Of a stretch of 47,160 nt of DNA, positions 2,463 through 44,261 are shown piece after piece; the first letter of the stretch is position 1, and every line of letters starts with the position of its first letter. Source of the stretch: Patescibacteria group bacterium (GTDB lineage: Bacteria; Patescibacteriota; Minisyncoccia; 2-02-FULL-40-12; GWA2-44-9); assembly GCA_038065335.1 (NCBI GenBank), contig JBBTRD010000008.1, positions 1 through 47,160 of the forward strand, given 5' to 3'. The notes under the pieces were generated by a model. It was not told the origin of the DNA, made no database searches, and saw only the letters and a list, made by a program, of their open reading frames with translations. Position numbers and translations under genes: made by a program.

Positions 2463-5384
2463 ATGACAGAATTTAATAAACTATACGGACAACTGAATAA
2501 AGCTCAAAAAGAAGCCGTCGATACGATTGAAGGGCCGGTGATGGTCGTGGCCGGGCCGGGGACGGGCAAGACCCAGATTTTGACGTTGCGAATCGCAAAT
2601 ATTTTATTAAAAACCGATACGCCACCGGGCGGGATTTTGGCGTTAACGTTTACTGAAGCTGGAGCAAAAGAAATGAAACGACGCCTCCGTGAAATTATTG
2701 GACCTCAAGCCAATGATGTTCGGATTCATACCTATCACGGATTCGCGAATTCGATTATTGTTGAATTTGACGACCACTTTCCGCATCTTGGGCGGATTAA
2801 ACAAATTACCGAGATTGAAGCCGAAATGCTGGTGCGGGATATTTTAAAGGAAAAACGATTTGCGAAATTGCGGCCGTTTGGTGAGCCGGATTTTTACGTG
2901 GATAAAATTATTGGCACGATTAGTGACGCCAAAAAAGAAGCTTGGACGCCAGAAATGGTGCGGGTGTTTGCCACTGATGAAATCAAACGAATAGAAAAAG
3001 ACGAAAAATCCATGTCTTCCCGCGGACCCACCAAGGGCAAACTCAGGGCCGAAGCTCTAAAACGAATTGAAAAATGCGAACGAACGATTCTGTTTGCCGA
3101 CGTATATAAAGCTTATGAACAATCAAAAAAAGACCAGCGGAAGATGGACTATGATGATTTAATCGTCGAACTTCTGCTGGTTTTTCGCACCGACGAACTT
3201 TTGCTGAAGATGATTCAGGAACGGTTTTTATATATTCTTGTGGATGAGCATCAAGACACCAATGATTCTCAAAATGTGTTAATTCGAATGATTGCCGATT
3301 TTTTTGAAACGCCGAATCTGTTCGTGGTGGGCGATGAGAAACAAGCTATCTATCGATTTCAGGGCGCGTCGGTTGAAAATTTTCTTCGATTTCAGAATAT
3401 CTGGAAGTCAATGCGGGTAATTCCGCTGGAGACAAATTATCGCTCTCATCAGAGTATTTTAGACGCAAGTTTTTCAATGATCGAGCATAATTACGCCATT
3501 GGTGAACATGATAATCTTCGAATTCCGCTTCATTCTGATACTGATGAAACACCGTGTCCGATAGATTTGATTATGGCCGGGAATATGGTGGCTGGCGATA
3601 CATATTTGGCAAACGAGATACGGACAATTTTAAATAAATATCCCACAAAAACAATCGCCATTATTACAAGAAGAAACCGTGAGATTGAGCATTTATTGAG
3701 ACTTTGTGAGCGATGCGATATTCCAGCGTCCGCCGAGCGTGGGATTGATATCTTTTCTCATCCCCTCGGGACACTTTTTTTTGCTCTCATTGAATTTTTG
3801 GCTGATCCTAGCGCAATTGAAGCGCTGGCTAAAACTATCGCCGGTGGACTGTGGAATCTTAATTTCGAAACCCAAATTCGACTAATTAGGGCTATCCGGG
3901 CCGGAACGGTTAGCGAAATTGATAAAGAAATTACCGCAATTGCGATATTAAAAAAAGAAGCAACCCAAATTGGCGCGATTGCATATCTTACGCTAGCCGG
4001 GGAATTAAGTGGAATCAATGCTCTTGCCTCCCGAGATCCACTCTCTGCCGAAGTGTGGCGAGCGATAATTTTACTTGCTTCAGAACTTGCCGGTCGAGGC
4101 AGTACTGATGATCCAATAAAACTAATCAACGATTTGTTGGCTTACCGCGCTTCGGCAGATAAGAAAAGCATTAAAATTAGTACCGGTGTGTCCAATGCTC
4201 AAGTTCGTATCATGACCGCCCACGGTTCAAAGGGATTGGAATTTGACTATGTCTTTGTGCCATACGCGACGGAAGAATCCTGGATTATCCATGGTCGAGG
4301 AGCATATTTTATTCTGCCAAGAGAAAAAGAAGAAGGAGACGAAATTCGGGATATTCGTCGTTTGTTTTATGTTGCTTTGACTCGCGCGCGTAGCCACGTT
4401 TGCATCATTTCTCCGTATGAAGAAAGCCCGGATCAACCATTAACGCCGTTACGTTTTTTGGACGAAATTCCCTCGCGGTATATTTCCAGAATTGATTTAC
4501 CCGCCCAAGCCCTAACGAGTGTTAAGGCGCAATCCATTGAAACCATCGGTTCGCATCGGGCAATGGAAATGATTGAGTATGCCAAACGTTCACTCCGGGA
4601 GCACGGTCTTTCGGTTACCGCCCTTAATCATTTTTGCGAATGTCCCAATAAGTTTTTATTTAAAAGTATTCTAAAACTTCCTGAACCGCCCTCGGCCAAC
4701 GCGGAAAGAGGGAATGCGATGCACGAAGCCATGGCCCGTGTTTGGCATTTGACGGACAAGAGTGAATCAACAATTACGGCTACCATCAAAAAAATCGTCC
4801 ATGAGTATTTTCGGGATTCATTATTGCCTATTTTTGAAAAAGAGCCGATTATTGAAGAACTTATTGTCGATGCGCCGATAGTGGCCGCCGCGCTGAAAAC
4901 CCACATTAGTCAGACCGGTACAATTGCCACTGAAATGTGGGTCGAACAATTGCTGGAGACGGCATACGGAAAAGAAGTCGTGTCGCTAAATCTCCACGGT
5001 AAACTTGACGCGGTCTTGGATACTAAGTCCGCGGTTTTTGTTTTTGATTATAAAACTCGTGAAGCTTTAAGTATCAATGCCATCAAAGGTGAAACAAAAA
5101 ATAGTAATCGCGATTACTTCCGCCAACTGGTATTTTACAAAATACTGCTTGAGAAAAATCAAAAATACAAAAACAAATCAATTGAACCTGCCCTTGTATT
5201 TATTAAACCAGATTCAAAAAATCGCTGCCCAATTATTTCTCTTCCCGTAGAGCCCGCGGACATTAAACAGGTTAAGCAAGAAATCAAGGATTTAATAGAA
5301 AGCGTTTGGTCCGGTAAATTTCTTACCACCACCTGCGACGACAAAGATTGTGAATACTGCGCTTTACGAAAGATGATGGAGTGA
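2463..5384 (+). CDS. UvrD/PcrA-family SF1 helicase fused to a C-terminal PD-(D/E)xK (RecB/Cas4-like) nuclease with a Cys cluster
   Basis: 973 aa. Helicase motifs AGPGTGKT, VDEHQDT, TNYRS, AHGSKGLEFD, YVALTRAR. The C-terminus has D..DYKT..Q..Y plus C...CDDKDCEYC. Confidence 0.88.
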   Translation: MTEFNKLYGQLNKAQKEAVDTIEGPVMVVAGPGTGKTQILTLRIANILLKTDTPPGGILALTFTEAGAKEMKRRLREIIGPQANDVRIHTYHGFANSIIVEFDDHFPHLGRIKQITEIEAEMLVRDILKEKRFAKLRPFGEPDFYVDKIIGTISDAKKEAWTPEMVRVFATDEIKRIEKDEKSMSSRGPTKGKLRAEALKRIEKCERTILFADVYKAYEQSKKDQRKMDYDDLIVELLLVFRTDELLLKMIQERFLYILVDEHQDTNDSQNVLIRMIADFFETPNLFVVGDEKQAIYRFQGASVENFLRFQNIWKSMRVIPLETNYRSHQSILDASFSMIEHNYAIGEHDNLRIPLHSDTDETPCPIDLIMAGNMVAGDTYLANEIRTILNKYPTKTIAIITRRNREIEHLLRLCERCDIPASAERGIDIFSHPLGTLFFALIEFLADPSAIEALAKTIAGGLWNLNFETQIRLIRAIRAGTVSEIDKEITAIAILKKEATQIGAIAYLTLAGELSGINALASRDPLSAEVWRAIILLASELAGRGSTDDPIKLINDLLAYRASADKKSIKISTGVSNAQVRIMTAHGSKGLEFDYVFVPYATEESWIIHGRGAYFILPREKEEGDEIRDIRRLFYVALTRARSHVCIISPYEESPDQPLTPLRFLDEIPSRYISRIDLPAQALTSVKAQSIETIGSHRAMEMIEYAKRSLREHGLSVTALNHFCECPNKFLFKSILKLPEPPSANAERGNAMHEAMARVWHLTDKSESTITATIKKIVHEYFRDSLLPIFEKEPIIEELIVDAPIVAAALKTHISQTGTIATEMWVEQLLETAYGKEVVSLNLHGKLDAVLDTKSAVFVFDYKTREALSINAIKGETKNSNRDYFRQLVFYKILLEKNQKYKNKSIEPALVFIKPDSKNRCPIISLPVEPADIKQVKQEIKDLIESVWSGKFLTTTCDDKDCEYCALRKMME

Positions 5385-5587: not shown

Positions 5588-7387
5588 ATGACTCATCAAG
5601 AAATACGAGAAAAATTTATTAAATTCTTCTCCGCCGGAGGCGGATCCGCCTTTGGCGGAGAAGTTCTTAAACACAAGACCGTGCCGTCTTTTTCGTTGTT
5701 GCCAACCGATTCGTCGGTGTTGTTTACGACCGCCGGAATGCAACAGTTTAAACCGTATTATACGGGTGATGGCGATGCCATGAAAGATTTTGGGTCGCTT
5801 AATACTGTTTCAATCCAAAAATCAATGCGCACTTCAGATATTGATTCCGTGGGGGATGAATCACACCTCACCTTTTTTGAGATGCTCGGCAACTTCTCCT
5901 TTGGCGGTTATTGGAAAAAAGAAGCCATTGAGTATGCTCACGAATTTATAACCAAAGAGATGGGCTTAAAAATAGATTATGTTTCTGTATTTGGTGGCGA
6001 ATCCTTCGACTCCGTTCAGGACAAATCCGGCAGTGTACCGCCAGATTTGGAATCAGAAAAAATATGGCAATCGCTTGATTCATCATTGGAAGTAAAGCGA
6101 GCGGGTCGAAACGATAATTTTTGGGGACCGACGGGCAGTGAGGGTCCTTGCGGTCCGACAACGGAGATTTACGTGAATGGTCTAGAAGTTTGGAATATTG
6201 TTTTTAATGAATATTACCAATCTGCCAATAAGCAATTGAACCCCCTTAAAATTAAAGGCATTGATACTGGTATGGGCCTTGAACGTTTAGCCATGGTCTC
6301 GCAGGGGAAAACAAATATTTTTGAAACCGATTTATTTGAACCCCTTATTCAAACGTTGCCGGATTCTTTAGATTTAAGAAAGAAAAGGATTATTAGTGAT
6401 CATTTGCGAGCCGCGGTTTTTTTGATTGCTGACGGTGTCACGCCATCCAACAAAGATCAAGGCTATATTTTGCGACGTCTTTTGCGCCGAGCGATGGTTT
6501 ATGAAAATCAAGCGAATTTATCACCCCAAGTATTTGAAAACGTTTTAAGAAAGGTAATCGAAATGTATGGCCGTGAATATCCGGAAATAAAATCAAAAAA
6601 AGACGAAATAGTAAACTCTTATTTCGCTGAATGGAATAAATTTAAGAAAGCCCTTTCATCTGGCATTAAGGAACTTGAAAAACTAGGAATCATTGATGCT
6701 CAATCAGCTTTTAAGCTCTATGAAAGTTATGGTTTGCCTTTTGAAGTGATAAAAGAAGTGGGCGGGGACAAAGCGTCGAATTTAACACGGAAAGACTTTG
6801 AAACGGAAAGGATCCACCATCAGGAAAAATCTCGAGCCGGCGCGGAAAAAAAATTCGGCGGACATGGCATGACTACTAGTGACCCTTCGACGGGCTCAGG
6901 GCTAGCTTCTGAAGAAGCTAGAAAGAAAACCAGACTTCACACAGCCACTCATATTGTGGTCGCGTCTCTAGAGAAAGTTTTAGGCGAATCATTAAAACAA
7001 GCTGGCGCTGATATCACCGCCGAACGCTTGCGTTTTGATTTTGCCTTTCCACGCAAAGTGACGCCGGAAGAATTGGCTGAAGCCGAGAAAATCGCCAATC
7101 AAGCCGTGGCCGATAATTTAGAAGTTTGGTTTGAGGAACTATCGCTGGAAGAAGCTTTTGCTTCCGGCGCTCATGGCGCTTTTGCCTATAAATATCCGCC
7201 CCGAGTCACCGTTTACACTGTTGGGGGCAAGAAAGGCCCCGACGCGAAGGTCGGGGTAGATTATTTCTCTCGTGAAATTTGCGGCGGCCCCCATGTCTCC
7301 CACACCGCTGAAATCGGTCATATTAAAATCACTAAAGAGGAATCCGTGAGCGGAGGAAATAGGCGAATTCGAGCCGTGATTGAATAG
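5588..7387 (+). CDS. alaS: alanine--tRNA ligase, compact form without a C-Ala domain
   Basis: 599 aa. Motifs FTTAGMQQFKPYY, FEMLGNFSFG, WGPTG..GPCGP, and editing-domain HTATH and CGGPHV. The ORF ends just after the editing domain. Confidence 0.92.
   Translation: MTHQEIREKFIKFFSAGGGSAFGGEVLKHKTVPSFSLLPTDSSVLFTTAGMQQFKPYYTGDGDAMKDFGSLNTVSIQKSMRTSDIDSVGDESHLTFFEMLGNFSFGGYWKKEAIEYAHEFITKEMGLKIDYVSVFGGESFDSVQDKSGSVPPDLESEKIWQSLDSSLEVKRAGRNDNFWGPTGSEGPCGPTTEIYVNGLEVWNIVFNEYYQSANKQLNPLKIKGIDTGMGLERLAMVSQGKTNIFETDLFEPLIQTLPDSLDLRKKRIISDHLRAAVFLIADGVTPSNKDQGYILRRLLRRAMVYENQANLSPQVFENVLRKVIEMYGREYPEIKSKKDEIVNSYFAEWNKFKKALSSGIKELEKLGIIDAQSAFKLYESYGLPFEVIKEVGGDKASNLTRKDFETERIHHQEKSRAGAEKKFGGHGMTTSDPSTGSGLASEEARKKTRLHTATHIVVASLEKVLGESLKQAGADITAERLRFDFAFPRKVTPEELAEAEKIANQAVADNLEVWFEELSLEEAFASGAHGAFAYKYPPRVTVYTVGGKKGPDAKVGVDYFSREICGGPHVSHTAEIGHIKITKEESVSGGNRRIRAVIE
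5630..5659. repeat. 30-nt GGATCC-centred palindromic element, in frame in alaS
   Basis: 30/30 identical to 1405-1434. It is translated as SAGGGSAFGG. Confidence 0.9.
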
Positions 7388-8417: not shown

Positions 8418-10130
8418 ATGTCTTCGACGAAGATTATAAATGTTCTCAAGGATGATTCGTTTCAGGAGATTATTGATATTTTTAAAGCCACGTCGGCCGA
8501 AGAGGTGATATTTGTGTTACCCAAAAGCGCGCGGGCTTTTAAAAAAGAAGAGCAATTTGCATCGCTTCGAGAAGAAGCCAAGACACTGGATAAATCGGTT
8601 TCTTTCTTGTGTTCCAGTCTAGAAATTAATGATCTAGCCAAAAAGTATAGATTTGAAGTTCTTTTGGCCCATTCGGCGAGCTTAGGGCAAGCTCGTTCGC
8701 CGGAAGTACGAAAAAAGTCTAATCCATCTCGCCTAACACCAACTGAAACGAGTTCGATTGATGTAGTGAATGAAATAGAAGATTTTTACGCCGAACCAGC
8801 GACGAGTGATGATTCAATCTCAATTTCACAGCCAATAAAAACAGAAGAAGTATTTACCGATGACCGGCGCCTTGACGATATCTTTGTACCCGAAGCAGAA
8901 GATCAGCATAATGTGAAAGTAGCTGGTGCCCGTGAGAAAGCGTTGTTTGTTCAAGTAAATCAAGACAATAAAGAACACAAAATTCGGCGCCCCACCCATC
9001 GAACAGTTTTGATTTTTTTGACTTGTGCGACGGTCGTCATTCTGGGAGCGGTCATTTTTATCACCGCCGGAAAAGCCCGGATTACTATCAAGCCGGTCAG
9101 CCAACCACTTGATCTTAGTCTGACTATATTTACTTCAGATGATGTTTCCTCCACTAGTTTGGCAAACATGGCCATTCCCGGTCAGCTGTTTAATATTCAA
9201 AAAACTGTTTCTCAAGATTTTACCGCGACTGGCCGTGTGGATGTTGCCCAAAAAGCGCGCGGGGCGATTACTGTCTATAATGAACTTTCGACGGATCAAC
9301 CATTGATAGCCACGACTCGATTTGAATCAGCCGATCGTCATATTTTTCATACCCTAACTTCAATCGTGGTGCCGGCCGGCAAAATTTCTAGCGGTAAATT
9401 TGTGCCCGGCAGTAAAGAGGTTCAGCTTATCGCTGATAAGGCCGGTTCCGAGTATAACGTTCCGGCAGGCCCGTTCACGATTCCGGCGTTTAAAGAACAA
9501 GGGGCTGCGGAAAAATATCAAAAGGTTTACGGTCGATCAACCGCTCCTATTCTTAACGGTACCAGCGGCCAATCAACAATCGTAACCGAAACTGATTTAA
9601 GCGCCGCCAGACAAACCCTCACCACTCAACTCACCGCTAATATTCAAGACGAATTGGAAACTCAAATTAATGGTCTAAAAATTATTAATGATCGTCAAAT
9701 TGTCGTGAGTAATCCTGTATCAACTAGTCCCGTTGACGCAAAGACGGCCACTTTTCAAGTTAATCTTTCTGGTTCACTCAAAACCGTTGGTTTTAAAGAA
9801 TCTGACCTTAACGCTCTCGTTGCTCAATACGTTGATACTCAAAAAAATATGACCACCTTGCCTGACAAACTCGTACTGACGTACGATAAAACTAAGTGGG
9901 ACGACACTAAAAACGGTCTCTCTTTCACAATTCACGTCACTGGCCCAAGTTACACCAAGATTGACCAACAAAAAATTATTACTGATTTATTAGGTAAGAA
10001 TGACGCGGAAATGAGAGCCTATCTGGGCGCAGTTACAGGTATTTCGTCAGCTCATGTCTCCTTGTCTCCATTCTGGGTCAAATCCATTCCCAGTAATAAG
10101 GATAAGGTACAAGTAGAACTTTCATATTAA
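8418..10130 (+). CDS. hypothetical membrane-anchored protein (570 aa)
   Basis: Long ORF with a cytoplasmic N-domain, a low-complexity linker, one TM helix (VLIFLTCATVVILGAVIFI) and a large beta-rich ectodomain. I cannot assign a family from sequence alone. Confidence 0.75.
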   Translation: MSSTKIINVLKDDSFQEIIDIFKATSAEEVIFVLPKSARAFKKEEQFASLREEAKTLDKSVSFLCSSLEINDLAKKYRFEVLLAHSASLGQARSPEVRKKSNPSRLTPTETSSIDVVNEIEDFYAEPATSDDSISISQPIKTEEVFTDDRRLDDIFVPEAEDQHNVKVAGAREKALFVQVNQDNKEHKIRRPTHRTVLIFLTCATVVILGAVIFITAGKARITIKPVSQPLDLSLTIFTSDDVSSTSLANMAIPGQLFNIQKTVSQDFTATGRVDVAQKARGAITVYNELSTDQPLIATTRFESADRHIFHTLTSIVVPAGKISSGKFVPGSKEVQLIADKAGSEYNVPAGPFTIPAFKEQGAAEKYQKVYGRSTAPILNGTSGQSTIVTETDLSAARQTLTTQLTANIQDELETQINGLKIINDRQIVVSNPVSTSPVDAKTATFQVNLSGSLKTVGFKESDLNALVAQYVDTQKNMTTLPDKLVLTYDKTKWDDTKNGLSFTIHVTGPSYTKIDQQKIITDLLGKNDAEMRAYLGAVTGISSAHVSLSPFWVKSIPSNKDKVQVELSY

Positions 10131-10142
10131 CCGCCTGTTGAT

Positions 10143-10211
10143 CCCGAACGAAGTCTGGCTCGCGCTCAGAGCGCGAGTCCGAAGGACCTTAGCTAGGCTA
10201 CTTCGTACGGG
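10143..10211. repeat. 69-nt structured palindromic element, intergenic copy (reverse orientation, about 78 percent identical to the copies at 22214 and 24305)
   Basis: Position-by-position comparison of its reverse complement with 22214-22282 gives 54/69 matches. TTGA direct repeats at 10138-10141 and 10213-10216. Confidence 0.85.
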
Positions 10212-10330
10212 ATTGACGTATCTTATTAGGTTTGATAGTATATAAACACTGAATTGACCACGATTACTAAGTGGCGTAGGAGCTTCTCCGATGCCCACTC
10301 TTGGTGGACGTCTTTTTTTCAGTACTATAT

Positions 10331-19978: not shown

Positions 19979-21347
19979 AGCTCTTATAATTTTGAAAACC
20001 GGGGCCAACGTTTTTTTGACGGGAGAACCGGGTTCGGGTAAAAGCTACACTGTTAACGAGTACGTGCGATATTTGCGCGCCCATAATATTGAGCCGGCCA
20101 TTACGGCTTCGACGGGCATCGCCGCCACTCATATCGGCGGAATGACGATTCATTCGTGGAGCGGAATTGGAATTCACACCAGTTTAGATAAGCAGGATAT
20201 CCGCCGAATTGCTTCGAGCAAGCACGTCGGAAAGCGAATGCGCGAAACTAATGTTTTAATAATTGACGAATGTTCAATGCTTCCGCCTAAAACGCTCGAT
20301 ATGGTTGAGGCCGTCTGTCGGGAAGCGCGCAAAAGTTACGAACCTTTCGGCGGACTTCAAATTATTTTGGTAGGTGATTTTTTTCAACTCCCGCCGATTA
20401 TTAAACGAAAAACTGAAGACCTGCCTGCCGGACAGGCAGGCGATTCCAATCAGATTATCTTGCTTGATGAACCCGAAGTTCGTTTTGCTTATGATTCTTC
20501 GGCTTGGACGCGAGCTAAACCTATTACGTGTTATCTCACCGAACAACACCGTCAAGACGATAAAAATTATTTGGGCATTCTTTCCGCAATTCGAGATAAT
20601 ACTTTTAACATGAAGCATGTTGGCCATCTCGAAAGCCGACGCACGACTTATGACAAAATCTCCGATGAAGCGCCCAAACTTTTTTCTCACAACGTGGACG
20701 TAGATTTAGTTAATAAGAATATGCTTTCTCAATTGCCCGGCGAACTGATGGAATTTCCAATGCGATCTTACGGCGTACCGAAATTAATAGCGACCCTAAT
20801 AAAGGGCTGCCTGTCGCCGGAATTTTTGAATTTAAAAATCGGAGCCTCGGTAATGTTCACGAAAAATAATCCCCGCGCCGGATTTGTAAATGGCACGCTT
20901 GGTATTGTTGAAGATTTTCGTAAAGACGATAACTACCCCATGATACGAACTCGGGCCGGACGACTCGTGGTCGCCGAACCCATGAACTGGGGCATTAAGG
21001 AAGGGGGCATATCTAAAGCCACGATCACCCAGATGCCATTGCGCTTGGCTTGGGCCATTACGGTTCACAAAAGCCAAGGGATGAGTCTCGATGAAGCCGT
21101 AATGGATTTAAGCGAGGTTTTTGAATACGGCCAAGGTTATGTCGCCCTCTCGCGAGTCAGACGATTATCCGGCGTCCATTTGATTGGCTGGAATCAGCGC
21201 GCTTTTCAGGTTCATCCCGAAGTCATCGCTAAAGAAAAAGAGTTCCAAATCGCTTCCAGTCTGGCCGAAAAAGAATATCGGGAATTGTCTCCAAAAATTA
21301 TTACCCAAAGACACGAATTTTTTATTAAAATGTGTACTAAAAAATGA
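19965..21347 (+). CDS. Pif1/RecD-like SF1B helicase
   Basis: 460 aa. Motifs GEPGSGKS, TASTGIAA, LIIDECSM, VGDFFQLPP, HRQ, TVHKSQG, YVALSRV. Confidence 0.88.
   Translation: MTQIEALIILKTGANVFLTGEPGSGKSYTVNEYVRYLRAHNIEPAITASTGIAATHIGGMTIHSWSGIGIHTSLDKQDIRRIASSKHVGKRMRETNVLIIDECSMLPPKTLDMVEAVCREARKSYEPFGGLQIILVGDFFQLPPIIKRKTEDLPAGQAGDSNQIILLDEPEVRFAYDSSAWTRAKPITCYLTEQHRQDDKNYLGILSAIRDNTFNMKHVGHLESRRTTYDKISDEAPKLFSHNVDVDLVNKNMLSQLPGELMEFPMRSYGVPKLIATLIKGCLSPEFLNLKIGASVMFTKNNPRAGFVNGTLGIVEDFRKDDNYPMIRTRAGRLVVAEPMNWGIKEGGISKATITQMPLRLAWAITVHKSQGMSLDEAVMDLSEVFEYGQGYVALSRVRRLSGVHLIGWNQRAFQVHPEVIAKEKEFQIASSLAEKEYRELSPKIITQRHEFFIKMCTKK
20420..20440. repeat. CCTGCCTGCCGG-a-CAGGCAGG palindrome in frame in the helicase gene
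   Basis: Same core as 39298-39317 and 43881-43900. It is translated as LPAGQAG. Confidence 0.8.
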
Positions 21348-23470
21348 AAATTGCCCTCATTACCCTCAACTATAACGGTGCGGAAAGCACCATCAAACTT
21401 TTGGAATCTCTACAGAATCAGACCGACCCTGATTTTTCCCTTATTGTCGCCGACAATGGTTCTACGGACATCCAAAAACTCCGAGATTATTGTGAAAATA
21501 AACCTATTCATATCATTGAAAATGGGGCTAATTTAGGATTCGGCGGAGGTTGCAACATTGCCATAAAGAGGGCCCTCAAAAATGGGGCGAGTTGGCTTGT
21601 TTTGTTAAATAACGACACTTGGGTCGAATCTGACTTTATCAGCCATTTAAAAGCCATTCTAGAGCGTACAAACGGCCTTGTCGGGTTACCTATTGACGAG
21701 GGGGATGGAGAAATTGCCATGGGTGGCCGACTTGAGTGGTTGAGTCCGACATTGAGTCATAATCACAGTTTTCTCAACCATAAACAAAATGCGCGAAAAA
21801 ACGGAAAAAACGTTTGCTATGCCATTGGCGGTGGGATGGCTATTGATTCATCGGCCGTCGAAAAAATCGGTTATTTTGACGAAAATTATTTTCTTTATTT
21901 TGAAGATGCGGATTTATCAATGCGGGCCCATGAAGCAGGCGTTCCAATAGCTTTTCCGACGAAACCGATCATTCATCACACTGTTTCAACAACCACGAGA
22001 AAACTCGGCGCGCCGTTACTTTTGCGTTACCACTATCGTAATGCTCTTTATTTTAATTTTAAAAACGCGCCTTTGTTTTATAAAATTGGCGCGATTTTTT
22101 GGAGTGTCATCATTTTCGTCAAACAACTGGTTAAATTATTAAGCAACATTCATCCTGCCGAGTCGCGAGCCATTCTGGCCGGCATTATTGATTTTTATCA
22201 AGAAAGGATGGGTCCCGTTAGAAGTAGCCTCGCCGAGGTCCGAAGGACTCGCGCCAAAGGCGCGAGCGAGACTTCGTACGGGATGGGCCGCATCTCCAAA
22301 AAAATTAAAGTCGGCATTGAATGTGAGCAAATTGAGGGCGAAATCTGGGGCGTGGGAAAGATTATTACCAAACTTTTAGAAAATATCGCTTCTCGGCCGG
22401 AACTGGAAAAAGATTTTGAATTTCATCTTTATTTCAAATCAAAAATTCCAAAACTATTATTCCTAGACAATTCAATATTTCATAAAAAAGTTATTGAGCA
22501 GCCGTTCCGGCACAAATCGTTTGTATTTTATTACTATGTTTTGCTTCCGATTCAGCTTTGGTTTGAACGGCTCGATGTCATGTTTTTCCCAAATTATATG
22601 TTGCCCATTATTTTTTTCGGCAATTCTGTCGTCATGCTAACCGAGGATATATATTACGAGATGCGGTCAAAACAACAACGATTCCATCATCGTTTGGCTT
22701 ATCGGGTTTTTGCCACTTGGGCCACCTGGCGAGCCAATAAAATTATGGCCATTTCGCAAACTTCAAAGAAAGAACTGGTTCGATTGTTTAACATTGAACC
22801 AGCCCGCATCGTGGTAAATCTACTCGCGGTAGATTCGGCAAAAATAGATTCTTTTTCCAACATTGGAAATTGCCCGCCCGCCGAAGCTTTAGCGAAGGAG
22901 GGGAAATTGAAAAATGAAAATTATCTATTGTTCGTCGGCCAATCTTTTCCCCGTCGACATTTAGCGGAATCATTGCTCGCCTTTGAAAAAATAGCGTCGG
23001 AATTTCAAGATTTGAAATTTATTATTGTTGGCCCGGACAAATATAATCCGCCGAGGATCAGACAACTTCAACAAGATATCAATTCTCGACTCGGCGGTGA
23101 GAGAATAATTTGGCATGAACGCGTATCCCAAGAAGAATTATCGCAACTTTATGCTCACACTCTGGCAACGATTTATATTTCATCCCGCGAAGCCTTTGGT
23201 TTGCCTCCGTTGGAAGGCCTGGCTCAAGGAAGCGTGCCAATAATCGCCGAAAATGCTTTGGGCCATGAGTTGTTTGAAGAGTGCGCTGTTTTTATCGCTA
23301 ATCCCGATTCAGTAGATGATATCGCTTCAGCTTTGCGTGAGGCCATGACAAATTCAACACTCCGTGAGAAAATAAAAGCGCATGCGCCAGAAATAGTTGA
23401 TCGTTACACTTGGCGCGCTCACACCGATCGGTTTCTAGAAATAATCAAATCTATGACCCGGCATGCCTAA
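21344..23470 (+). CDS. bifunctional glycosyltransferase (N-terminal GT2, C-terminal GT4)
   Basis: 708 aa. GT2 motifs ITLNYNG, ADNGSTD, LLNNDT, FEDADL. GT4 motif EAFGLPPLEGLAQGSVPI. The ATGA overlaps the upstream stop. Confidence 0.88.
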   Translation: MKIALITLNYNGAESTIKLLESLQNQTDPDFSLIVADNGSTDIQKLRDYCENKPIHIIENGANLGFGGGCNIAIKRALKNGASWLVLLNNDTWVESDFISHLKAILERTNGLVGLPIDEGDGEIAMGGRLEWLSPTLSHNHSFLNHKQNARKNGKNVCYAIGGGMAIDSSAVEKIGYFDENYFLYFEDADLSMRAHEAGVPIAFPTKPIIHHTVSTTTRKLGAPLLLRYHYRNALYFNFKNAPLFYKIGAIFWSVIIFVKQLVKLLSNIHPAESRAILAGIIDFYQERMGPVRSSLAEVRRTRAKGASETSYGMGRISKKIKVGIECEQIEGEIWGVGKIITKLLENIASRPELEKDFEFHLYFKSKIPKLLFLDNSIFHKKVIEQPFRHKSFVFYYYVLLPIQLWFERLDVMFFPNYMLPIIFFGNSVVMLTEDIYYEMRSKQQRFHHRLAYRVFATWATWRANKIMAISQTSKKELVRLFNIEPARIVVNLLAVDSAKIDSFSNIGNCPPAEALAKEGKLKNENYLLFVGQSFPRRHLAESLLAFEKIASEFQDLKFIIVGPDKYNPPRIRQLQQDINSRLGGERIIWHERVSQEELSQLYAHTLATIYISSREAFGLPPLEGLAQGSVPIIAENALGHELFEECAVFIANPDSVDDIASALREAMTNSTLREKIKAHAPEIVDRYTWRAHTDRFLEIIKSMTRHA
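22214..22282. repeat. 69-nt structured palindromic element, in frame (frame 0) in the GT2/GT4 linker
   Basis: 68/69 identical to 24305-24373. It is translated as PVRSSLAEVRRTRAKGASETSYG and flanked by ATGGG at 22208-22212 and 22283-22287. Confidence 0.92.
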
Positions 23471-25103
23471 ATTATTAAATCCACTTTTTATATTTCATCT
23501 TATTTTTGTGGCGTTAGTTTTAATCGGCGAAATTCCGCGTGAACTTGTTATTTATGAAACCGGTCTATTGGTTTTATATTTCTTGTTTGCTTCCATTGAA
23601 GACGGGTTAATATTTTTTGTTCGTTCAATTCCGCTTTTTATCGCCATCCCGCTGACCGCGAATTACGACAACCTCAATCAATGGCGGATTCTGGCAATTA
23701 TTTTATTCGGCAAATGGCTGTTCACTCGGGAGACCTGGCATTACTTCGGAGCTTGGCTAGTTTTATTATTCCGAAAGCCTTGGATTGTCATCAAAGAGCA
23801 TCCTTGGGCGGCTTTGTTTAAGATTTTAGCAATCCTTAGCCTGTTGTCTTTGTGGCACGCTCCTGACCGGATTGAAGGTTTAAAACGGATTATTTATTTT
23901 ATCAACGCCGCTCTCGTCGCCGTTGTTATTGTTTATCCGCCTCGAAGCCATGAGTTTATCAAACGACTCATTAAAAATATTATCGCCCCGATCATTATTG
24001 TCGTTCTCGTTGGCGTCGTTCAAGTTGCCTCCACTTATTTTATAGACATTTATCAATTTATGAGAATTTGGGGCGAGGGAATTCAACTTAGAGAGTTTGG
24101 CGCGATGTGGTCGTATATCGCCGTCAATGTTGGTAATACCTGGTTTGCTTACTTCGGCGACCAACTCTCGCTCCGAGTGTTTTCCCTCTTTCCCGACTCC
24201 CATTCGTTTCCAATATTTTTACTGCTTGGCCTGCCCGCGTTTTTTGCTTGGACTCTTGTCAAGCCGCTCGGTCGAGCGACAAGAATGCGCGATATGCTTT
24301 TTACCCCGTTAGAAGTAGCCTCGCCGAGGTCCGAAGGACTCGCGCCAAAGGCGCGAGCGAGACTTCTTACGGGGTTTACCCGTGGCAAGCTAGCTGTGCT
24401 TTGGATTCCTTTAATATTCTTGATGATGATTCTTTCTGGCACTCGAGGCATCTGGATAGGCGGAGTCATAATGACGATTTGGATTCTCTTTGTCTTTTTG
24501 TATATGCGCCGCAATAGAGTCGCGGCCGAAAAAATCAATATCTTTCGATACATATCGTACTATATATTTATTTTTTTCTTATTGTTTGCCGTGGCTTATC
24601 CTATATTTTCTTCCCCTCAATTCTTGGTATCTAAAGGAGACGCTTTCCTGCTTCAGCAACGATTTAAGTCAATCTTTGATTTCGGCGAAACTTCGAATAG
24701 CCAACGGATTGAAATTTGGAAAAAAAGTTTGGTTTCTATTGAACATAATCCTGTGTTTGGAGTTGGTATTGGAAATTTCCCCGTCGTTCTCGGCCAAAAC
24801 ATTAAACTAACTAAGGCTGGTTCGTCGGCTCATAACATTTATCTGCAAGTCGCTTCGGAAATGGGGATTCCGGCGGCATTGTTTTTTTTATGGTTCATCT
24901 GGTTGGTTTTGAAACAAACCTACAAACGCTTCATAAAATCTACCGAGCCGGCGTATCAGGCCTATTTCGGCGGGCTCCTAATCACCCTGCCTTGGATTCT
25001 GGCTTATTTAATGACTGACGTGGCAATTTTTGACGAACGAGCTCTTCTTCTCTGTGTCGCCACCCTCGCGATTGTGGCCACGCCTTTGCACGCTCATGAA
25101 TAA
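23463..25103 (+). CDS. O-antigen ligase/polymerase (Wzy_C-like) family membrane protein
   Basis: 546 aa. Polytopic membrane protein with loop motifs SGTRGIWIG and SAHNIYLQVASEMGI. Confidence 0.8.
   Translation: MPKLLNPLFIFHLIFVALVLIGEIPRELVIYETGLLVLYFLFASIEDGLIFFVRSIPLFIAIPLTANYDNLNQWRILAIILFGKWLFTRETWHYFGAWLVLLFRKPWIVIKEHPWAALFKILAILSLLSLWHAPDRIEGLKRIIYFINAALVAVVIVYPPRSHEFIKRLIKNIIAPIIIVVLVGVVQVASTYFIDIYQFMRIWGEGIQLREFGAMWSYIAVNVGNTWFAYFGDQLSLRVFSLFPDSHSFPIFLLLGLPAFFAWTLVKPLGRATRMRDMLFTPLEVASPRSEGLAPKARARLLTGFTRGKLAVLWIPLIFLMMILSGTRGIWIGGVIMTIWILFVFLYMRRNRVAAEKINIFRYISYYIFIFFLLFAVAYPIFSSPQFLVSKGDAFLLQQRFKSIFDFGETSNSQRIEIWKKSLVSIEHNPVFGVGIGNFPVVLGQNIKLTKAGSSAHNIYLQVASEMGIPAALFFLWFIWLVLKQTYKRFIKSTEPAYQAYFGGLLITLPWILAYLMTDVAIFDERALLLCVATLAIVATPLHAHE
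24305..24373. repeat. 69-nt structured palindromic element, in frame (a different frame) in the Wzy-like gene
   Basis: It is translated as PLEVASPRSEGLAPKARARLLTG and flanked by TTTAC at 24300-24304 and 24375-24379. Confidence 0.92.
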
Positions 25104-29998: not shown

Positions 29999-30267
29999 AC
30001 CACACTGACCACTTTCACAATTCGACGATCGCCACTGAATCCGGTTTTGCGTTTGGTGGTGAACTTTACCTGACCGGGCGTCACGGCATAAATCGTGTAG
30101 TCCTTGCCCAGACGAACGCCAAGACCGGGAAGAAATTTAGTGCCGTGCTGACGAATAATAATATTACCGATTTTAGCGGCTTGGCCTTGAGAAAGCTTTA
30201 CGCCAAGATATTTAGGCTGTGAATCGCGACCATTAGCCGTAGTTCCTATCGCTTTTGTATGTGCCAT
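29995..30267 (-). CDS. rpmA: 50S ribosomal protein L27
   Basis: 90 aa. MAHTKAIGTTANGRDSQPKYLGVK... Confidence 0.95.
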   Translation of the reverse strand: MAHTKAIGTTANGRDSQPKYLGVKLSQGQAAKIGNIIIRQHGTKFLPGLGVRLGKDYTIYAVTPGQVKFTTKRKTGFSGDRRIVKVVSVV

Positions 30268-30450
30268 AGTTTCCGAAATTTTTGAGCTAGCCCAGCGAAA
30301 AAAATTTCGCTGAAACTATGCAGTCCCGCCTCATCTGGTTTCACAATGAGTGATACCAGTGAACAGAGACGAAGTCGTTTCACTGCTCTAAAACTTCCTG
30401 TTAAAATATATTCGACCCCAGATGGGGCGGGGCGCCATAGTCGTCTATTA

Positions 30451-32907: not shown

Positions 32908-33578
32908 TTACCTGACATGTATTTCTCCCAATATTCGTAAAGTTTCGCGGTGGAGACGATATCGCGAACGCAATAAAGAGCGATGTCTCGGCAACGGCCT
33001 TCTTTGAAGAGGTGAGCGACGTCATGACCCGTCACACCCTTGTCTTTGGGGCTCTCAATACCAAAAGCTTGGCACCAGAGATGCAGACTTCCCTTAAAAC
33101 GCATCGCGCCGTAGTTGGTCAATTTGTCGTAGATATCGATGTGTGGCCGATCATAGTATCGATTCTGAATTAAATTAACCGAGGGTTTTACTTTATTAAT
33201 CGCCGAACGAATCGCCAAAAATGGACAATCAAAACTATGACCGTTGAAAGTTATAAACTGATCGTAATGATTAGCTGATTCCCAAAATCGTTTTAAAATT
33301 TCTTTTTCATTCGCGCAGGGGACCGCGAGATTACCACCCACTTCTTCTTCGATTTCATCTTTTTGTTTTTGATAATAGACCGCGCCCTTGTTCGTTTCCG
33401 GATTTAAAATACCAATGGCCACCACTCGGCCGGTCAGAGGGGAAAGGCCCATGCCGTCGCGAACGAGCTGACGTTGAGCATCGGTTTCAACGTTGGCCAA
33501 TAATAGCTCCCTAGATTTTTCATCTAAACCATCGAAGTCCACGCCAACGGTTTCAATATCAAATACGAGTTTAGGCAT
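32904..33578 (-). CDS. DEDDy-type 3'-5' exonuclease (PolB-exonuclease-like, RNase H fold)
   Basis: 224 aa. Motifs FDIET, FNGHSFDCPFL, YCVRD. Confidence 0.8.
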   Translation of the reverse strand: MPKLVFDIETVGVDFDGLDEKSRELLLANVETDAQRQLVRDGMGLSPLTGRVVAIGILNPETNKGAVYYQKQKDEIEEEVGGNLAVPCANEKEILKRFWESANHYDQFITFNGHSFDCPFLAIRSAINKVKPSVNLIQNRYYDRPHIDIYDKLTNYGAMRFKGSLHLWCQAFGIESPKDKGVTGHDVAHLFKEGRCRDIALYCVRDIVSTAKLYEYWEKYMSGK

Positions 33579-36810: not shown

Positions 36811-38733
36811 ATGTACGTTCTCGAAGTTTTACCCCTCACAACACTTCCGCCCCAAATTCCCCAGATTTTGAGTTACTATCACGATTCGGACCTTCCTAAG
36901 GGCGCCATTGTTGAAATATCTCTCAATAATCGCCTCGTAACAGCGACGGTTATTGATTCATACAATCTTGACGAACAAAAAATCTTAATTAAAAAATCTC
37001 TTTTTCAACTCAAAAAAATAAGTAGAGTTTTAAGCGAAAAATCCATTATTACCGAATGGCAATTTAAAATCGCTTTGTGGTTAGCTAGCCATTATGTTGC
37101 TCCGCTCGGCCTCTGCCTGAAAACTGTCTTGCCACCGTTTTTTCTAAAAGCCCGCTACCTTATCGAACCAAAAAAATTATTTTCTAATCCATCGGCGAAT
37201 CTAATATCGGAATGGATTATTACCCACGCCCAAGATTCGGCCCGTCATATTAAACCATTCCTCAAGGATAAATTGGGCCAGACATTAATTGTTGTTCCGG
37301 ATGGTTCTTATATCCCCTATTTTCAAAAAGAATTCGTAGCGACAAAACCATTTATTTTGACTTCCGCCACTAGTAACAAAGATTATTATCGAATCTGGAA
37401 AGATGTCGCCACGCAAAATATTCGTATGATTATTGGCACTCGCCAAGCTCTTTTTCTGCCTTTCGTAAATCTAAAACACATTATTGTTATTGATCCGCTT
37501 CACGAATTTTATAAATCCGACATGAGTCCTAAATATTGGACGCCGGAATTAGCCGAAATGGTTGCCCTGAATCATGGCGCGCAATTTATTGCTTTGTCTC
37601 CCCTTCTCGGTGTTGACGCTTATGAAAAATCTCTCCAAGACAAAATTCAAGTTCGGGATACTTCAAAATCATGGCCGGCAAAAATTTCGGTGATTGACCT
37701 CACCTCCGAATTCAAACAAGGTTACTTTGTTAGTACTCTCACTCCGAACGCGCGGGATATCATACGCGAAACACTTGCTCGCAAAGAAAAAGTTCTGATC
37801 GTTTCCGCCCGACGCGGATACAGTGGAATCCTTCTTTGCCAGCGCTGCGGATTTTCGTTTAAATGCCCGAATTGCGATTTACCCATGCGCGTCCACCAAG
37901 GTGTCACTCTTTTATTGATTTGTCATCATTGTAATCACTCTCTATCATATCCTTACGCCTGTCCGAATTGTCATAGCTCCCAAATAAAAGCGACTGGACC
38001 GGCCGGCGGGCAAAAAATATTTGAAGAACTCCAAAAAATGATTGTGTTCGGCCAACTTGAGAAAGTGCCGATTTTACTTATGGATGCCGACACTACCCAA
38101 AACCAAACCGAAGAAAATGAAATTCTAGAAACAATCCACAAGGTCGGACCTTGTATTCTCATTGCTACCCAAAAAATATTCAGCTATAGCTACGATTTAA
38201 AATTTAATACTGTCATTATTCCCCGGCTTGACGCTCTTGCCGTCGGTTCTGATTTCCAAACCACCGAACGGCTTTGGTACCATCTTGAAAAACTGGCTGA
38301 CTTCCTGCCTGCCGGCAGACACGGTGAACCAAGCCAAATTGTCGCCCAAACATTCAATCAAAAAGAACTTCTTCCAAAACTTGCTCGCCATGATTACAAG
38401 CTGTTATACGAACTAGAATTGTCCGCCCGCAAAGCTTTCTGGTATCCGCCGTTCTGCCGAATCGTCAAACTTACTTATACTCATGCCGATTACCGTAAAG
38501 TCATCGCTTCCGCCCGCGCGGCGGTGGAAAAATTAAAAATGGCCTCAATCCATATCAAAGCCCAAGATAAAATCAAAATCACCGAAACCTCCCAGCTTTT
38601 CCTAAAAAAAGAGAAGGGCCGTTTCACTTATGCCATCATCGTCAAAATCCCGCTCGACTTCCCTCCCCGTGATCTCCTTCGCTACGTCCCCACCCAATGG
38701 CTGATAGATTTAGATCCGCGGACAACAATATAG
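36811..38733 (+). CDS. priA: PriA-like primosomal protein N' with degenerate ATPase motifs
   Basis: 640 aa. PriA architecture including the Cys-rich zinc region (CQRCG..CPNCD...CHHCN...CPNCH). There is no GxGK[ST] Walker A, and DPLH stands where DExH is expected. Confidence 0.8.
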   Translation: MYVLEVLPLTTLPPQIPQILSYYHDSDLPKGAIVEISLNNRLVTATVIDSYNLDEQKILIKKSLFQLKKISRVLSEKSIITEWQFKIALWLASHYVAPLGLCLKTVLPPFFLKARYLIEPKKLFSNPSANLISEWIITHAQDSARHIKPFLKDKLGQTLIVVPDGSYIPYFQKEFVATKPFILTSATSNKDYYRIWKDVATQNIRMIIGTRQALFLPFVNLKHIIVIDPLHEFYKSDMSPKYWTPELAEMVALNHGAQFIALSPLLGVDAYEKSLQDKIQVRDTSKSWPAKISVIDLTSEFKQGYFVSTLTPNARDIIRETLARKEKVLIVSARRGYSGILLCQRCGFSFKCPNCDLPMRVHQGVTLLLICHHCNHSLSYPYACPNCHSSQIKATGPAGGQKIFEELQKMIVFGQLEKVPILLMDADTTQNQTEENEILETIHKVGPCILIATQKIFSYSYDLKFNTVIIPRLDALAVGSDFQTTERLWYHLEKLADFLPAGRHGEPSQIVAQTFNQKELLPKLARHDYKLLYELELSARKAFWYPPFCRIVKLTYTHADYRKVIASARAAVEKLKMASIHIKAQDKIKITETSQLFLKKEKGRFTYAIIVKIPLDFPPRDLLRYVPTQWLIDLDPRTTI

Positions 38734-39232: not shown

Positions 39233-39359
39233 GGTTAAGAACCTGCCTTTTGACCCAGTAGCGGAAGGGGTCCCAGCGAAGCTGGGGAAACCGACGGCCT
39301 GCCTGCCGGCAGGCAGGGACTGGTTTCCCGGGTCTGGGGCAAAAGGCAGGTTCTTAACC
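39233..39359. repeat. 127-nt MITE-like element with 20-bp perfect terminal inverted repeats, filling the def-fmt spacer
   Basis: GGTTAAGAACCTGCCTTTTG (39233-39252) and CAAAAGGCAGGTTCTTAACC (39340-39359). Central 20-nt palindrome CCTGCCTGCCGGCAGGCAGG (39298-39317). Confidence 0.85.
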
Positions 39360-39364
39360 GCAAT

Positions 39365-40267
39365 ATGAAAATAATTTTCTTTGGGACATCTGAATTTGCG
39401 GTACCGGCGCTAGAGACACTCCATGGTGCTGGTTTTGATGTTACGGTCATCACTATGCTCGATCAACCGGTCGGCCGAAAAAAGATTCTCACACCGACGC
39501 CAGTTAAGGTCGCGGCGGAAAAACTTGGTCTCAAAGTTCTCCAGCCACTGAAACTAAAGGATGATGTATTTTTTGAAGAATTTTTAGCCCTGGGCGAACC
39601 CGCCTCTGGCGGGCAGTTCCAACCTCCCGATTTTTGTGTTATCGCCGCCTACGGCAAAATTATCGCCGAACGATATATAAATACCCCTAAATATGGGTTT
39701 TTAAATATTCATCCTTCTCTTCTTCCGAAGTATCGAGGACCAACACCCATTCAGACTGCAATTCTCAATGGTGAAGATACAATTGGTGTCTCCATCATAC
39801 AAATTGATAAAGACGTGGACCATGGCGGAATTTTTTCGAAGCAAGAATTACGAATTACGAATTACGAAAACTACAAAAAAATTTATGATAAGCTCGCTGA
39901 ACTTGGGGCAAAATTATTGGTTGAAACAATCCCTAAAATTATTTCCGGAGAAATCAAGCCGAAGGAGCAAGACCACAGCCAGGCGATATTCACGAAAATA
40001 TTTACTCGAGAAGATGCCCGCATTGATTGGTCTCGTCCGCCTCAAGAAATTTATAACCAAATCCGCGCCCTCAACCCCGAACCCGGCACTTGGACAACAT
40101 GGAACGACAAAGTAGTGAACATCAAAGCCGCCTCCTTCGCTAAAACTACGGAAGGCCACAACAAGCAACTAAAATTGCTCATTGTACAACTTGAAGGGAA
40201 AAAAGAAACATCCATGTCTGATTTTCTCTCTGGCCATCCCGATTTCGATGTCTCTCAATTAAAATAA
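39365..40267 (+). CDS. fmt: methionyl-tRNA formyltransferase
   Basis: 300 aa. MKIIFFGTSEFAVP..., NIHPSLLPKYRG, downstream of def. Confidence 0.94.
   Translation: MKIIFFGTSEFAVPALETLHGAGFDVTVITMLDQPVGRKKILTPTPVKVAAEKLGLKVLQPLKLKDDVFFEEFLALGEPASGGQFQPPDFCVIAAYGKIIAERYINTPKYGFLNIHPSLLPKYRGPTPIQTAILNGEDTIGVSIIQIDKDVDHGGIFSKQELRITNYENYKKIYDKLAELGAKLLVETIPKIISGEIKPKEQDHSQAIFTKIFTREDARIDWSRPPQEIYNQIRALNPEPGTWTTWNDKVVNIKAASFAKTTEGHNKQLKLLIVQLEGKKETSMSDFLSGHPDFDVSQLK
39599..39613. repeat. CCCGCC-tct-GGCGGG hairpin in frame in fmt
   Basis: Identical 15-mer to the one within 18411-18440. It is translated as PASGG in both genes. Confidence 0.8.
39845..39865 (+). repeat. (GAATTAC)x3 heptanucleotide tandem repeat inside fmt
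   Basis: Three perfect units, 21 nt, in frame (ELRITNY). Confidence 0.9.
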
Positions 40268-40874: not shown

Positions 40875-40924
40875 AACTTACACTTTAGAAATAGCTCGTA
40901 CGAGCTATTTCTAAAGTGTAAGTT
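40875..40924. terminator. 50-nt perfect palindrome centred on GCTCGTACGAGC
   Basis: AACTTACACTTTAGAAATAGCTCGT|ACGAGCTATTTCTAAAGTGTAAGTT, 4 nt downstream of the 40929..41768 stop. Confidence 0.75.
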
Positions 40925-43616: not shown

Positions 43617-44240
43617 ATGGCTATCCCCGTAAACGATTTAAAACCCAAAACATATTTTATTTATGAGGGCCAACCCTACGTGGTTTTGGAAACTCATCAT
43701 TTAAAGATGCAACAGCGTCGACCGACGGTGCAGGTTCGGATGCGCAATCTCATCAATGGTAAAATGCTCGAACGCAATTTCGCCCAGTCGGATATTTTTG
43801 AACCCGCCGACGTCGAGCACCAAAAAGTTAAATATCTTTACGCTCATCGCGATCAGTATTGGTTTTCATACGAAAAAGATCTGCCTGACCGGCAGGCAGG
43901 ACCGGCCAAGCGTTTTGAATTAAAATCCGAAATTATCGGTGATTCTGCTAAATTTCTTAAGCCCAATACCTTAATTGATGCCATTGCTTTTTCCGCCGAA
44001 GGCGGATCCGCCTCCGGCGGAGAGTCTCAAATCATCAGCATTGAATTGCCCATCAAAATGGAGTTCAAAGTTACTGAAGCTCCGCCAGCCATCCGGGGCG
44101 ACACCGCTCAAGGGGGGGTCAAACAAGCGACGATTGAAACCGGCGCCTCAATCAACGTTCCTCTCTTTATTAACCAAGGCGATACTATCTTGATCAACAC
44201 CGAAACCGGTGATTATGTAGAACGAGTCAATAAAGGTTAA
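43617..44240 (+). CDS. efp: elongation factor P (with two in-frame repeat insertions)
   Basis: I chose the start at in-frame ATG 43617 (MAIPVNDLKPKTYFIYEGQPYVVLE...). The C-terminal motif is GDTAQGG.K.ATIETGA...VPLFI..GD.I.I.T..G.Y..R. Confidence 0.9.
   Translation: MAIPVNDLKPKTYFIYEGQPYVVLETHHLKMQQRRPTVQVRMRNLINGKMLERNFAQSDIFEPADVEHQKVKYLYAHRDQYWFSYEKDLPDRQAGPAKRFELKSEIIGDSAKFLKPNTLIDAIAFSAEGGSASGGESQIISIELPIKMEFKVTEAPPAIRGDTAQGGVKQATIETGASINVPLFINQGDTILINTETGDYVERVNKG
43881..43900. repeat. CTGCCTG-accgg-CAGGCAG palindrome in frame in efp
   Basis: Same core family as 20420-20440 and 39298-39317. It is translated as LPDRQAG. Confidence 0.8.
43992..44021. repeat. 30-nt GGATCC-centred palindromic element, in frame in efp
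   Basis: TCCGCCGAAGGCGGATCCGCCTCCGGCGGA, with 29/30 matches to the reverse complement of 1405-1434. It is translated as SAEGGSASGG. Confidence 0.9.
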
Positions 44241-44261
44241 TTAAACTCACAAAAAAATGAT

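Follow-up and report, generated by a model that had tools for sequence, protein, structure and literature searches.

A 71-nt palindromic repeat of Patescibacteria is probably a non-autonomous transposon tolerated within genes

The three repeat copies and the genes that carry them

Here we analyzed a 47,160-nt stretch of DNA from a Patescibacteria group bacterium (positions 1 to 47,160 of contig JBBTRD010000008.1, GenBank assembly GCA_038065335.1; hereafter the window), in which a 69-nt GC-rich palindromic core (CCCGT...ACGGG) is present three times. Together with one further base at each end (Y + 69-nt core + R), the core makes up a 71-nt mobile unit. This unit is very probably a non-autonomous DNA transposon, a miniature inverted-repeat transposable element (MITE) with a 4-bp target-site duplication, mobilized in trans and tolerated in genes through its frame-neutral length and stop-free frames. 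The region was assembled independently in at least 10 Hainich groundwater samples and is also found in GCA_964362695.1, and its closest named relatives are Candidatus Yanofskybacteria.

Two copies lie inside neighboring genes on the forward strand. Copy A (T + core + A; 22213..22283, core 22214-22282) interrupts the open reading frame (ORF) of a fused GT2-GT1 glycosyltransferase (21344..23470), with GT2 at residues 6-219 and GT1 at residues 517-682. It is read as GPVRSSLAEVRRTRAKGASETSYG and is bordered by TGGG on the left (22209..22212) and on the right (22284..22287). The insert corresponds to residues about 290-314, between the two Pfam domains. In the AlphaFold model the predicted local distance difference test score (pLDDT) falls below 50 at residues 289-317 and the flanking domains are well modeled, which is consistent with a tolerated loop; a low pLDDT is also expected where most of the alignment lacks the segment. 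Copy B (C + core + G; 24304..24374, core 24305-24373), with one core mismatch to copy A, sits in the ORF of an O-antigen-ligase-like membrane protein (23463..25103; domain match to Wzy_C at residues 317-476), where it is read as TPLEVASPRSEGLAPKARARLLTG between TTTA repeats at 24300..24303 and 24375..24378. Here the insert covers residues about 283-307, just before Wzy_C, and falls within a stretch that is hydrophilic and positively charged, between hydrophobic segments. Copies A and B are read in different phases and yield unrelated peptides, PVRSSLAEVRRTRAKGASETSYG and PLEVASPRSEGLAPKARARLLTG respectively; examples of predicted peptides that span the junctions are DFYQERMGPVRSSLAEVR and DMLFTPLEVASPR.

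Copy C (10142..10212, core 10143-10211) is intergenic, aligns best in reverse orientation (minus strand) and is more diverged, with 77-79% identity to A and B. It begins 12 nt past the stop codon of ORF 8418-10130, upstream of infA, and is flanked by TTGA at 10138..10141 and 10213..10216. The distance from the end of ORF 8418-10130 to the infA start is 174 nt and is the same on the four contigs of the source population shown (six were read), so copy C appears fixed in that population.

All three copies share the same anatomy. The extra terminal bases are complementary in each (T..A in A, C..G in B, T..A in C), and the terminal inverted repeats of 12-13 bp, YCCCGTTAGAAGT...ACTTCTAACGGGR, reach the element ends and enclose a GC-rich interior with two hairpins. 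Across 31 distinct copies, 97.8% of cells in the terminal arms are paired. Each strand folds into a Y shape of about -35 to -39 kcal/mol, with z ~ -4 against shuffles (-37.4 kcal/mol and z = -4.3 for copy A). The element has no coding capacity of its own, and at 71 nt it is below the MITE limit of about 300-500 bp.

The duplication, its target and the empty sites

A sequence-only reading of the window had placed the three copies and their flanking repeats correctly, with ATGGG (22208 and 22283), TTTAC (24300 and 24375) and TTGA (10138 and 10213) each starting exactly 75 nt apart. It had taken these repeats for a target-site duplication of 4-6 bp; the duplication stands, and its length does not, as it is consistently 4 bp and abuts a 71-nt rather than a 69-nt element. 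The fifth base of ATGGG is the terminal A of the element itself. The fifth base of the upstream TTTAC is the first C of the element, which by chance equals the host C that follows the downstream TTTA. Overlap with the element ends also explains the longer extensions GGATGGG and TTTACC.

Orthologs that lack the element carry the single repeat that had been predicted for them. At site A, 62 of 64 full-length homologs have a clean 25-residue gap at the exact insertion point (DFYQER|MG). The closest syntenic ortholog (L056/L057; 78% identical to the window glycosyltransferase by BLASTP, 83% in a gap-masked alignment) reads GAAAGA-A-TGGG-ACAC, with one TGGG and minus exactly 25 codons. At site B, the 25 residues are missing in about 113 of about 115 homologs, and the syntenic ortholog L058 reads ATGCTC-TTTA-CGCGCGG, with one TTTA. 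The difference between a filled and an empty allele is thus exactly 75 nt, namely the element and one copy of the 4-mer, and such a difference is the signature of a target-site duplication. The evidence supports that reading of the flanking repeats, with the refinements given above.

The glycosyltransferase alignment also contains other inserts. Homologs P0005-P0007, P0009, P0016 and P0027 have lineage-specific inserts of their own elsewhere in the protein (8-40 residues, rich in G/S/P/A), and short inserts that keep the frame seem to be common among these proteins. The window protein itself has a second lineage-specific insert at residues about 505-525, NIGNCPPAEALAKEGK, with pLDDT below 50 and no counterpart in orthologs. 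Its GC-rich DNA (22872-22910) has an inverted copy in the formyltransferase gene (40122-40156).

Further copies were collected in two ways. When species-representative genomes were scanned for the internal double-hairpin pattern, 34 loci were obtained, from Yanofskybacteria, Niyogibacteria, Liptonbacteria and other Patescibacteria. A profile search of these loci and the window then gave 41 copies of the 71-nt family. These copies lie in dozens of unrelated genes and in intergenic sites, in both orientations. A metagenome scan on the 10-bp terminus only (CCCGTTAGAA ... TTCTAACGGG, 36-96 nt apart) returned at least 120 loci with copies of 58-136 nt, many of them with unrelated interiors that are mostly AT-rich. 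The shared terminus of this superfamily is YCCCGTTAGAA, and its members range from about 30 to 136 nt. The minimal forms measure about 30-34 nt, with nothing but a short loop between the terminal repeats, and still have a 4-bp duplication: TTTA for L099 9738-9769, TTGA for L113 about 10107-10142 and CTCA for L180 5697-5725. Since only the termini are common to the superfamily copies, the termini are what a transposase would recognize. The 71-nt family thus belongs to a large and apparently undescribed superfamily of miniature inverted-repeat elements.

In these further genomic copies, the flanking repeat and its spacing are retained, as the sequence-only reading had anticipated. We compared the flanks with a control of permuted upstream and downstream flank pairs, which accounts for target preference. 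For the 71-nt family, 36 copies had both flanks (33 of them from other genomes), and a perfect 4/4 abutting repeat was present in 24 of these, against 7.5% for permuted pairs. Positions -5 to -2 equal their +75 partner in 29-31 of the 36 copies, and positions -6 and -1 are not above the permuted control. With the signal confined to four positions, the duplication measures exactly 4 bp and the element 71 nt. We reject a 6-bp duplication around a 69-nt element on the same grounds, and the empty sites also assign the Y and R bases to the element. A 5-bp repeat, with 76-nt spacing, was seen in 2 of the 36 copies (L016 and L042). In the superfamily set, the perfect repeat is present in 85/131 copies against 10% in the control, and pooling the window, other Patescibacteria genomes and metagenomes gives 109/167 (65%) against 8.7%. 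At the control rate, the probability of finding all three window duplications by chance is ~5e-4.

The duplicated 4-mers vary, with a clear consensus. Among the 109 perfect duplications, the target is T(94%)-T45/G24/A17/C15-A46/C22/T20/G12-A(93%), i.e. T-N-N-A, with no signal in the flanks. The commonest 4-mers in the superfamily are TAAA, TTTA, TGAA, TTCA, TCAA and TTGA.

Reading frames and tolerance within genes

Element and duplication together make 71 + 4 = 75 nt, or 25 codons, at all three window copies, as had been claimed. The accompanying claim, that insertion never shifts the host frame whatever the phase, holds for the absence of a frameshift by the 75-nt unit. It does not hold for every phase, as one phase per orientation has a stop. 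Four of the six frames of the 71-nt element are stop-free, and frame 0 is stopped in each orientation, by TAG from GAAGTAGCC and usually by TAA from TTCTAACGGG. The 16 copies of this family that lie deep in open frames (with 40 or more open codons to either side) are confined to the four stop-free frames (4, 4, 7 and 1 copies). Such deeply intragenic copies account for 16/39 (~40%) of the 71-nt family and for 16/131 (12%) of the superfamily sample.

The superfamily, with its many lengths, indicates where frame neutrality comes from. In 66/131 copies the length plus 4 is divisible by three (p = 4e-5), and the excess comes entirely from copies in open frames. Deep in open frames, 14/16 copies are frame-neutral, with a mean of 3.1 stop-free frames and an interior GC content of 0.54. 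Closer to the end of an ORF (shorter side of 15-39 codons), the proportion is 18/23, with 2.4 stop-free frames and a GC content of 0.45; the two intragenic classes together give 32/39 (p = 5e-10). Outside genes it is 34/92 (p = 0.26), with 0.9 stop-free frames and a GC content of 0.39, and these copies split 34/29/29 over the three length classes. We therefore reject the idea that the superfamily as a whole is inherently frame-neutral. Frame neutrality belongs to certain length classes (71, 68, 62, 101 nt and others) that have been filtered by selection, and not to insertion chemistry. We infer that the element is translated within host genes, with the inserted 75 nt read by the ribosome, because otherwise neither length nor stop codons would matter.

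Insertion of the 71-nt element adds 25 codons with no frameshift, and its GC-rich interior leaves four of six frames stop-free. Insertions in permissive loops or linkers could then be tolerated and translated, and would persist in gene-dense genomes because of these two properties. The proteins of Patescibacteria, whose genomes are ultra-small and gene-dense, often carry unexplained short insertions. At least some of these would be transposon insertions, tolerated since element plus duplication is a multiple of three and stop-free. In practice, the shared 10-12-bp terminus could serve to mask insertions when Patescibacteria proteins are annotated, aligned or placed in phylogenies, and to find the transposase; it is also a marker of strain-level polymorphism.

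A comparable case is that of the Rickettsia palindromic elements (RPEs), which in the account of Ogata et al. 2000 relayed by PMC10969869 are short palindromic insertions, translated in frame within genes and also found between genes, at fold-compatible positions in reduced genomes. Like RPEs, the 71-nt element is palindromic, lies in frame within protein genes as well as in intergenic DNA, occupies fold-compatible sites and occurs in small genomes. RPEs, in contrast, are about 100-150 bp and belong to alphaproteobacterial endosymbionts, and the sequences are unrelated. The 71-nt element may thus be seen as a functional analog of RPEs only, set apart from the RPE families by sequence, length and host phylum. 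To our knowledge, no clean signature of terminal repeat and duplication and no insertion mechanism has been established for RPEs. The 71-nt family, for which the termini, the 4-bp duplication, the target consensus and the empty sites are explicit, would offer a tractable analog.

Mobilization, rival explanations and other repeats

Small size, terminal inverted repeats, a fixed-length target-site duplication, empty sites and dispersed copies are the features of a MITE, and all are found for the 71-nt element. Like the classical MITEs (Correia of Neisseria, RUP of pneumococcus, Nezha of cyanobacteria, ERIC, and QMITE1 of Coxiella), it is small, non-coding, hairpin-forming and dispersed. It differs from them in its terminus YCCCGTTAGAA, its 4-bp T-N-N-A duplication, its host phylum and its unusual shortness (71 nt, and down to about 30 nt in the superfamily). 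Correia and IS630-derived elements duplicate TA, and we know of no cognate insertion sequence for the 71-nt family. Some bacterial MITEs also lie in genes as in-frame fusions (PMC10969869). In the literature that we searched, the terminus sequence appeared in no relevant context and no such elements were described for the Candidate Phyla Radiation/Patescibacteria. The kind of element is known, and the 71-nt family appears to be new within it; from this phylum no such element seems to have been reported.

Mobilization would proceed through a DDE-type transposase supplied in trans, which would bind the shared termini and cut the target with a 4-bp stagger at T-N-N-A. The forms that consist of terminal repeats only and still have a duplication fit such recognition of the termini by a protein. 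The window encodes no transposase, in agreement with the sequence-only reading, and every other sizeable window ORF is a housekeeping gene. The wider search for candidate transposases that had been proposed gave none, either in the window or across about 1.1-1.4 Mb of related loci. Within these loci, terminus pairs 130-6000 bp apart with a matching duplication were considered as autonomous copies and rejected, as all of them enclose housekeeping genes (MurG, FtsW, RF1, L31 and a P-type ATPase) between separate small elements. Unpaired termini there are mostly chance matches. Because neither an autonomous element nor a transposase was found in this material, we only infer that the elements are mobilized in trans, and that the enzyme is of the DDE type.

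The leading candidate, from the 4-bp T-N-N-A duplication and the CCC-type termini, would be a piggyBac/IS1380-like enzyme, which we offer as a lead and not as a claim of membership. The element terminus resembles that of piggyBac, CCCTAGAAAGATA, a likeness that could be due to chance. Members of IS1380 in ISfinder have 4-5-bp repeats and CC ends. PiggyBac targets TTAA, with variants such as TAAA and TCAA, and has termini that begin with CCC, and the IS1380 family has been used as its prokaryotic outgroup (PMC10813416). The 71-nt element resembles this group in the 4-bp duplication at a palindromic T..A target, the CCC in its termini and the occasional 5-bp repeat (two copies). Unlike in piggyBac, however, the target is relaxed, with exact TTAA in about 3 of 109 copies, and one element-borne base, Y, stands between the duplication and the invariant CCC.

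Several observations weigh against interpreting the 71-nt repeat as a MITE with a conventional enzyme. One is the lack, among the terminus pairs described above, of any autonomous element or transposase with these termini. Another is that about 35% of the pooled copies (58) are without a perfect duplication; 27 of these 58 match at 3/4 positions (as do 25% of the permuted pairs in the pooled control), which is consistent with mutational decay, and some of the 58 are nested. A third is the recurrence of insertion at the same site. Both intragenic sites also hold an element, at the identical nucleotide position, in a second, non-sister lineage, with the element missing from closer relatives. For site A, this lineage is that of L058/L059 (P0005), and the empty sisters of the window and of L058/L059 are 83% and 92% identical, respectively. 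The L058/L059 copy (3888-3958) is also a 71-nt element with the same TGGG duplication, in the opposite orientation to the window copy and with a diverged interior. For site B, the second lineage is that of L013/P0092, and the empty sisters are 83% and 90% identical. Parsimony favors independent insertions at few permissive sites, and frequent seamless excision is the alternative account.

The arms also co-vary, which is not expected from a simple fixed protein-binding sequence. Among the 31 distinct copies, nine pairs have changed on both sides, and the observed score was reached by 0/500 shuffles. The helices fixed by the search pattern are uninformative in this respect, and the signal comes from one internal stem and the terminal arms, whose outermost pair never mismatches, being U-A in 17 copies and C-G in the other 14. 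This covariation hints at a constraint on the hairpin itself, through a single-stranded intermediate or correction between the arms; it also fits symmetric ends bound by one enzyme together with subfamily descent.

If the enzyme excised seamlessly, as in piggyBac, the clean empty sites in sister lineages would be explained. A more far-reaching model, which we regard as possible though doubtful, is that a prokaryotic piggyBac/IS1380-like transposase with seamless excision lets 25-codon inserts in essential genes be reversibly gained and lost at few permissive T-N-N-A sites. The 71-nt length and the stop-free GC-rich interior would then be adapted to coding sequence, and the covariation of the termini would stem from a hairpin transposition intermediate.

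The covariation also bears on an alternative in which an HUH/Y1 transposase recognizes the hairpin and mobilizes single-stranded DNA, in the style of IS200/IS605-derived palindromic or REP/RAYT elements. The 71-nt element is, like those, hairpin-dominated, small and abundant in compact genomes with no transposase nearby. Its very stable, Y-shaped fold, the significant compensatory changes in the arms and internal stems and the absence of a DDE transposase near any copy would all agree with such a mechanism. IS200/IS605-type elements, however, insert beside a fixed tetra- or pentanucleotide with no duplication, and REP/RAYT elements likewise use a fixed motif. Here the 4-mer varies among copies, with two at each filled site and one where the element is missing, and the inverted repeats are symmetric and run to the very ends, as in DDE elements. 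Since those systems make no duplication, mobilization of the IS200/IS605 or REP type is disfavored, and we consider it very improbable.

We give equally little credence to the element being a functional module, that is, a structured RNA or DNA signal or a 25-residue peptide insert kept by selection, with mobility secondary. Its mean column identity is 90% across hosts whose proteins are only 40-80% identical, its structure co-varies, and copies are often at gene starts or ends, where some form a start codon from the terminal A and the TG of TGAA. A module kept for its function would nonetheless not be expected in both orientations and four reading frames, giving unrelated peptides, nor to be missing from nearly all orthologs of each host gene. 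The interiors of the superfamily are unrelated and only the termini are common, and the inserted segment is modeled with low confidence between domains. A known RNA family was rejected, as the only Rfam matches at the gathering threshold over the window are two tRNAs and none is to the element.

A further possibility is that the flanking repeats are microhomologies, and that the element spread by recombination, gene conversion or repair-templated insertion between related genomes. Allele exchange could fill the same site in non-sister lineages, as seen for both window genes. It would not account for copies in dozens of unrelated genes and intergenic sites, for a duplication of fixed length with a T-N-N-A consensus, or for the opposite orientations of the two filled alleles at site A, which allele transfer leaves unexplained. 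We find this explanation scarcely credible. That the repeats are artefacts of assembly or binning is a negligible prospect: the data are all metagenomic and one copy ends a 66% GC contig binned as Planctomycetales, but identical junctions were assembled independently in at least 10 samples with different assemblers, reading frames are intact, and the filled alleles are longer than the empty ones by exactly 75 nt. Transposition as a MITE remains the reading that we favor.

Several superfamily copies are placed or combined in unusual ways. Some sit exactly at start codons, inserted in the TGAA of ATGAA, so that the terminal A and the TG of the duplicated TGAA make a new ATG downstream (L058 2926-3001, L105 about 1198-1333 and 2928; the genes are for a glycosyltransferase, L31 and PrmC). 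TAAA and TGAA targets put other copies directly at stop codons. Nested or tandem composites, back to back or one within another, were seen at L077 616-799, L071 1946-2127 and L069 102-286; in these, the outer pair has a matching 4-bp duplication and the inner junctions have reverse-complement flanks. The copy on the Planctomycetales-binned contig is a partial 71-nt element (L014 1509-1565) at the end of 1.5 kb of sequence, and could result from mis-binning or from a chimeric join at the repeat, or else indicate that the element also occurs outside Patescibacteria.

Viral contigs yielded few matches to the superfamily pattern, mostly without a duplication. The generic terminal-repeat pattern gave 11 matches, none of which fits the element profile, and we attribute these to chance. 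A Mu-like phage contig from IMG/VR, which encodes a MuA-type transposase, a MuB-like ATPase, GemA and Gam, carries superfamily copies (L188 3246-3323 and 3963-3989; L189 4676-4756), mostly without an intact duplication. Phages may thus be vehicles for the spread of the element. As a transposase partner the Mu-like phage was set aside, because Mu-type transposases make 5-bp repeats and have TG ends.

Within the source population (L001-L010), apparent presence/absence differences were dismissed as 100-nt unalignable blocks. Window positions 30118-30433 and 32919-33177 are replaced by such non-aligning blocks in L001, L002, L005, L007 and L008. The blocks probably represent scaffold gaps, and repeats may have caused the assembly to break at both positions.

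The window also contains other palindromic repeats. A second GC-rich insert family is a 30-nt double hairpin, TCCGCCGGAGGCGGATCCGCCTTTGGCGGA, composed of two tandem 15-nt hairpins and spanning 10 codons, with copies at 1403-1443, 5628-5668, 39582-39622 and 43990-44030 in the housekeeping ORFs for Obg, alanyl-tRNA synthetase, formyltransferase and EF-P. It is without the CCCGTTAGAA terminus and has no obvious duplication. A 20-nt perfect palindrome, CCTGCCTGCCGGCAGGCAGG, or near variants of it, recurs at 20413-20445, 38295-38327, 39295-39343 and 43877-43919, in the ORFs for a PIF1-like helicase, PriA and EF-P and in one intergenic palindrome, and may be another family of small in-frame inserts. 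The gap between the peptide deformylase and formyltransferase genes is filled by a 127-nt palindromic element (39233-39359) with 26-nt arms that are 96% complementary (GGTTAAGAACCTGCCTTTTGACCCAG...) and with termini that differ from those of the 71-nt element. Finally, a perfect 25 + 25-nt palindrome, AACTTACACTTTAGAAATAGCTCGT / ACGAGCTATTTCTAAAGTGTAAGTT, is intergenic at 40875-40924, with a related imperfect copy at 44253-44295.

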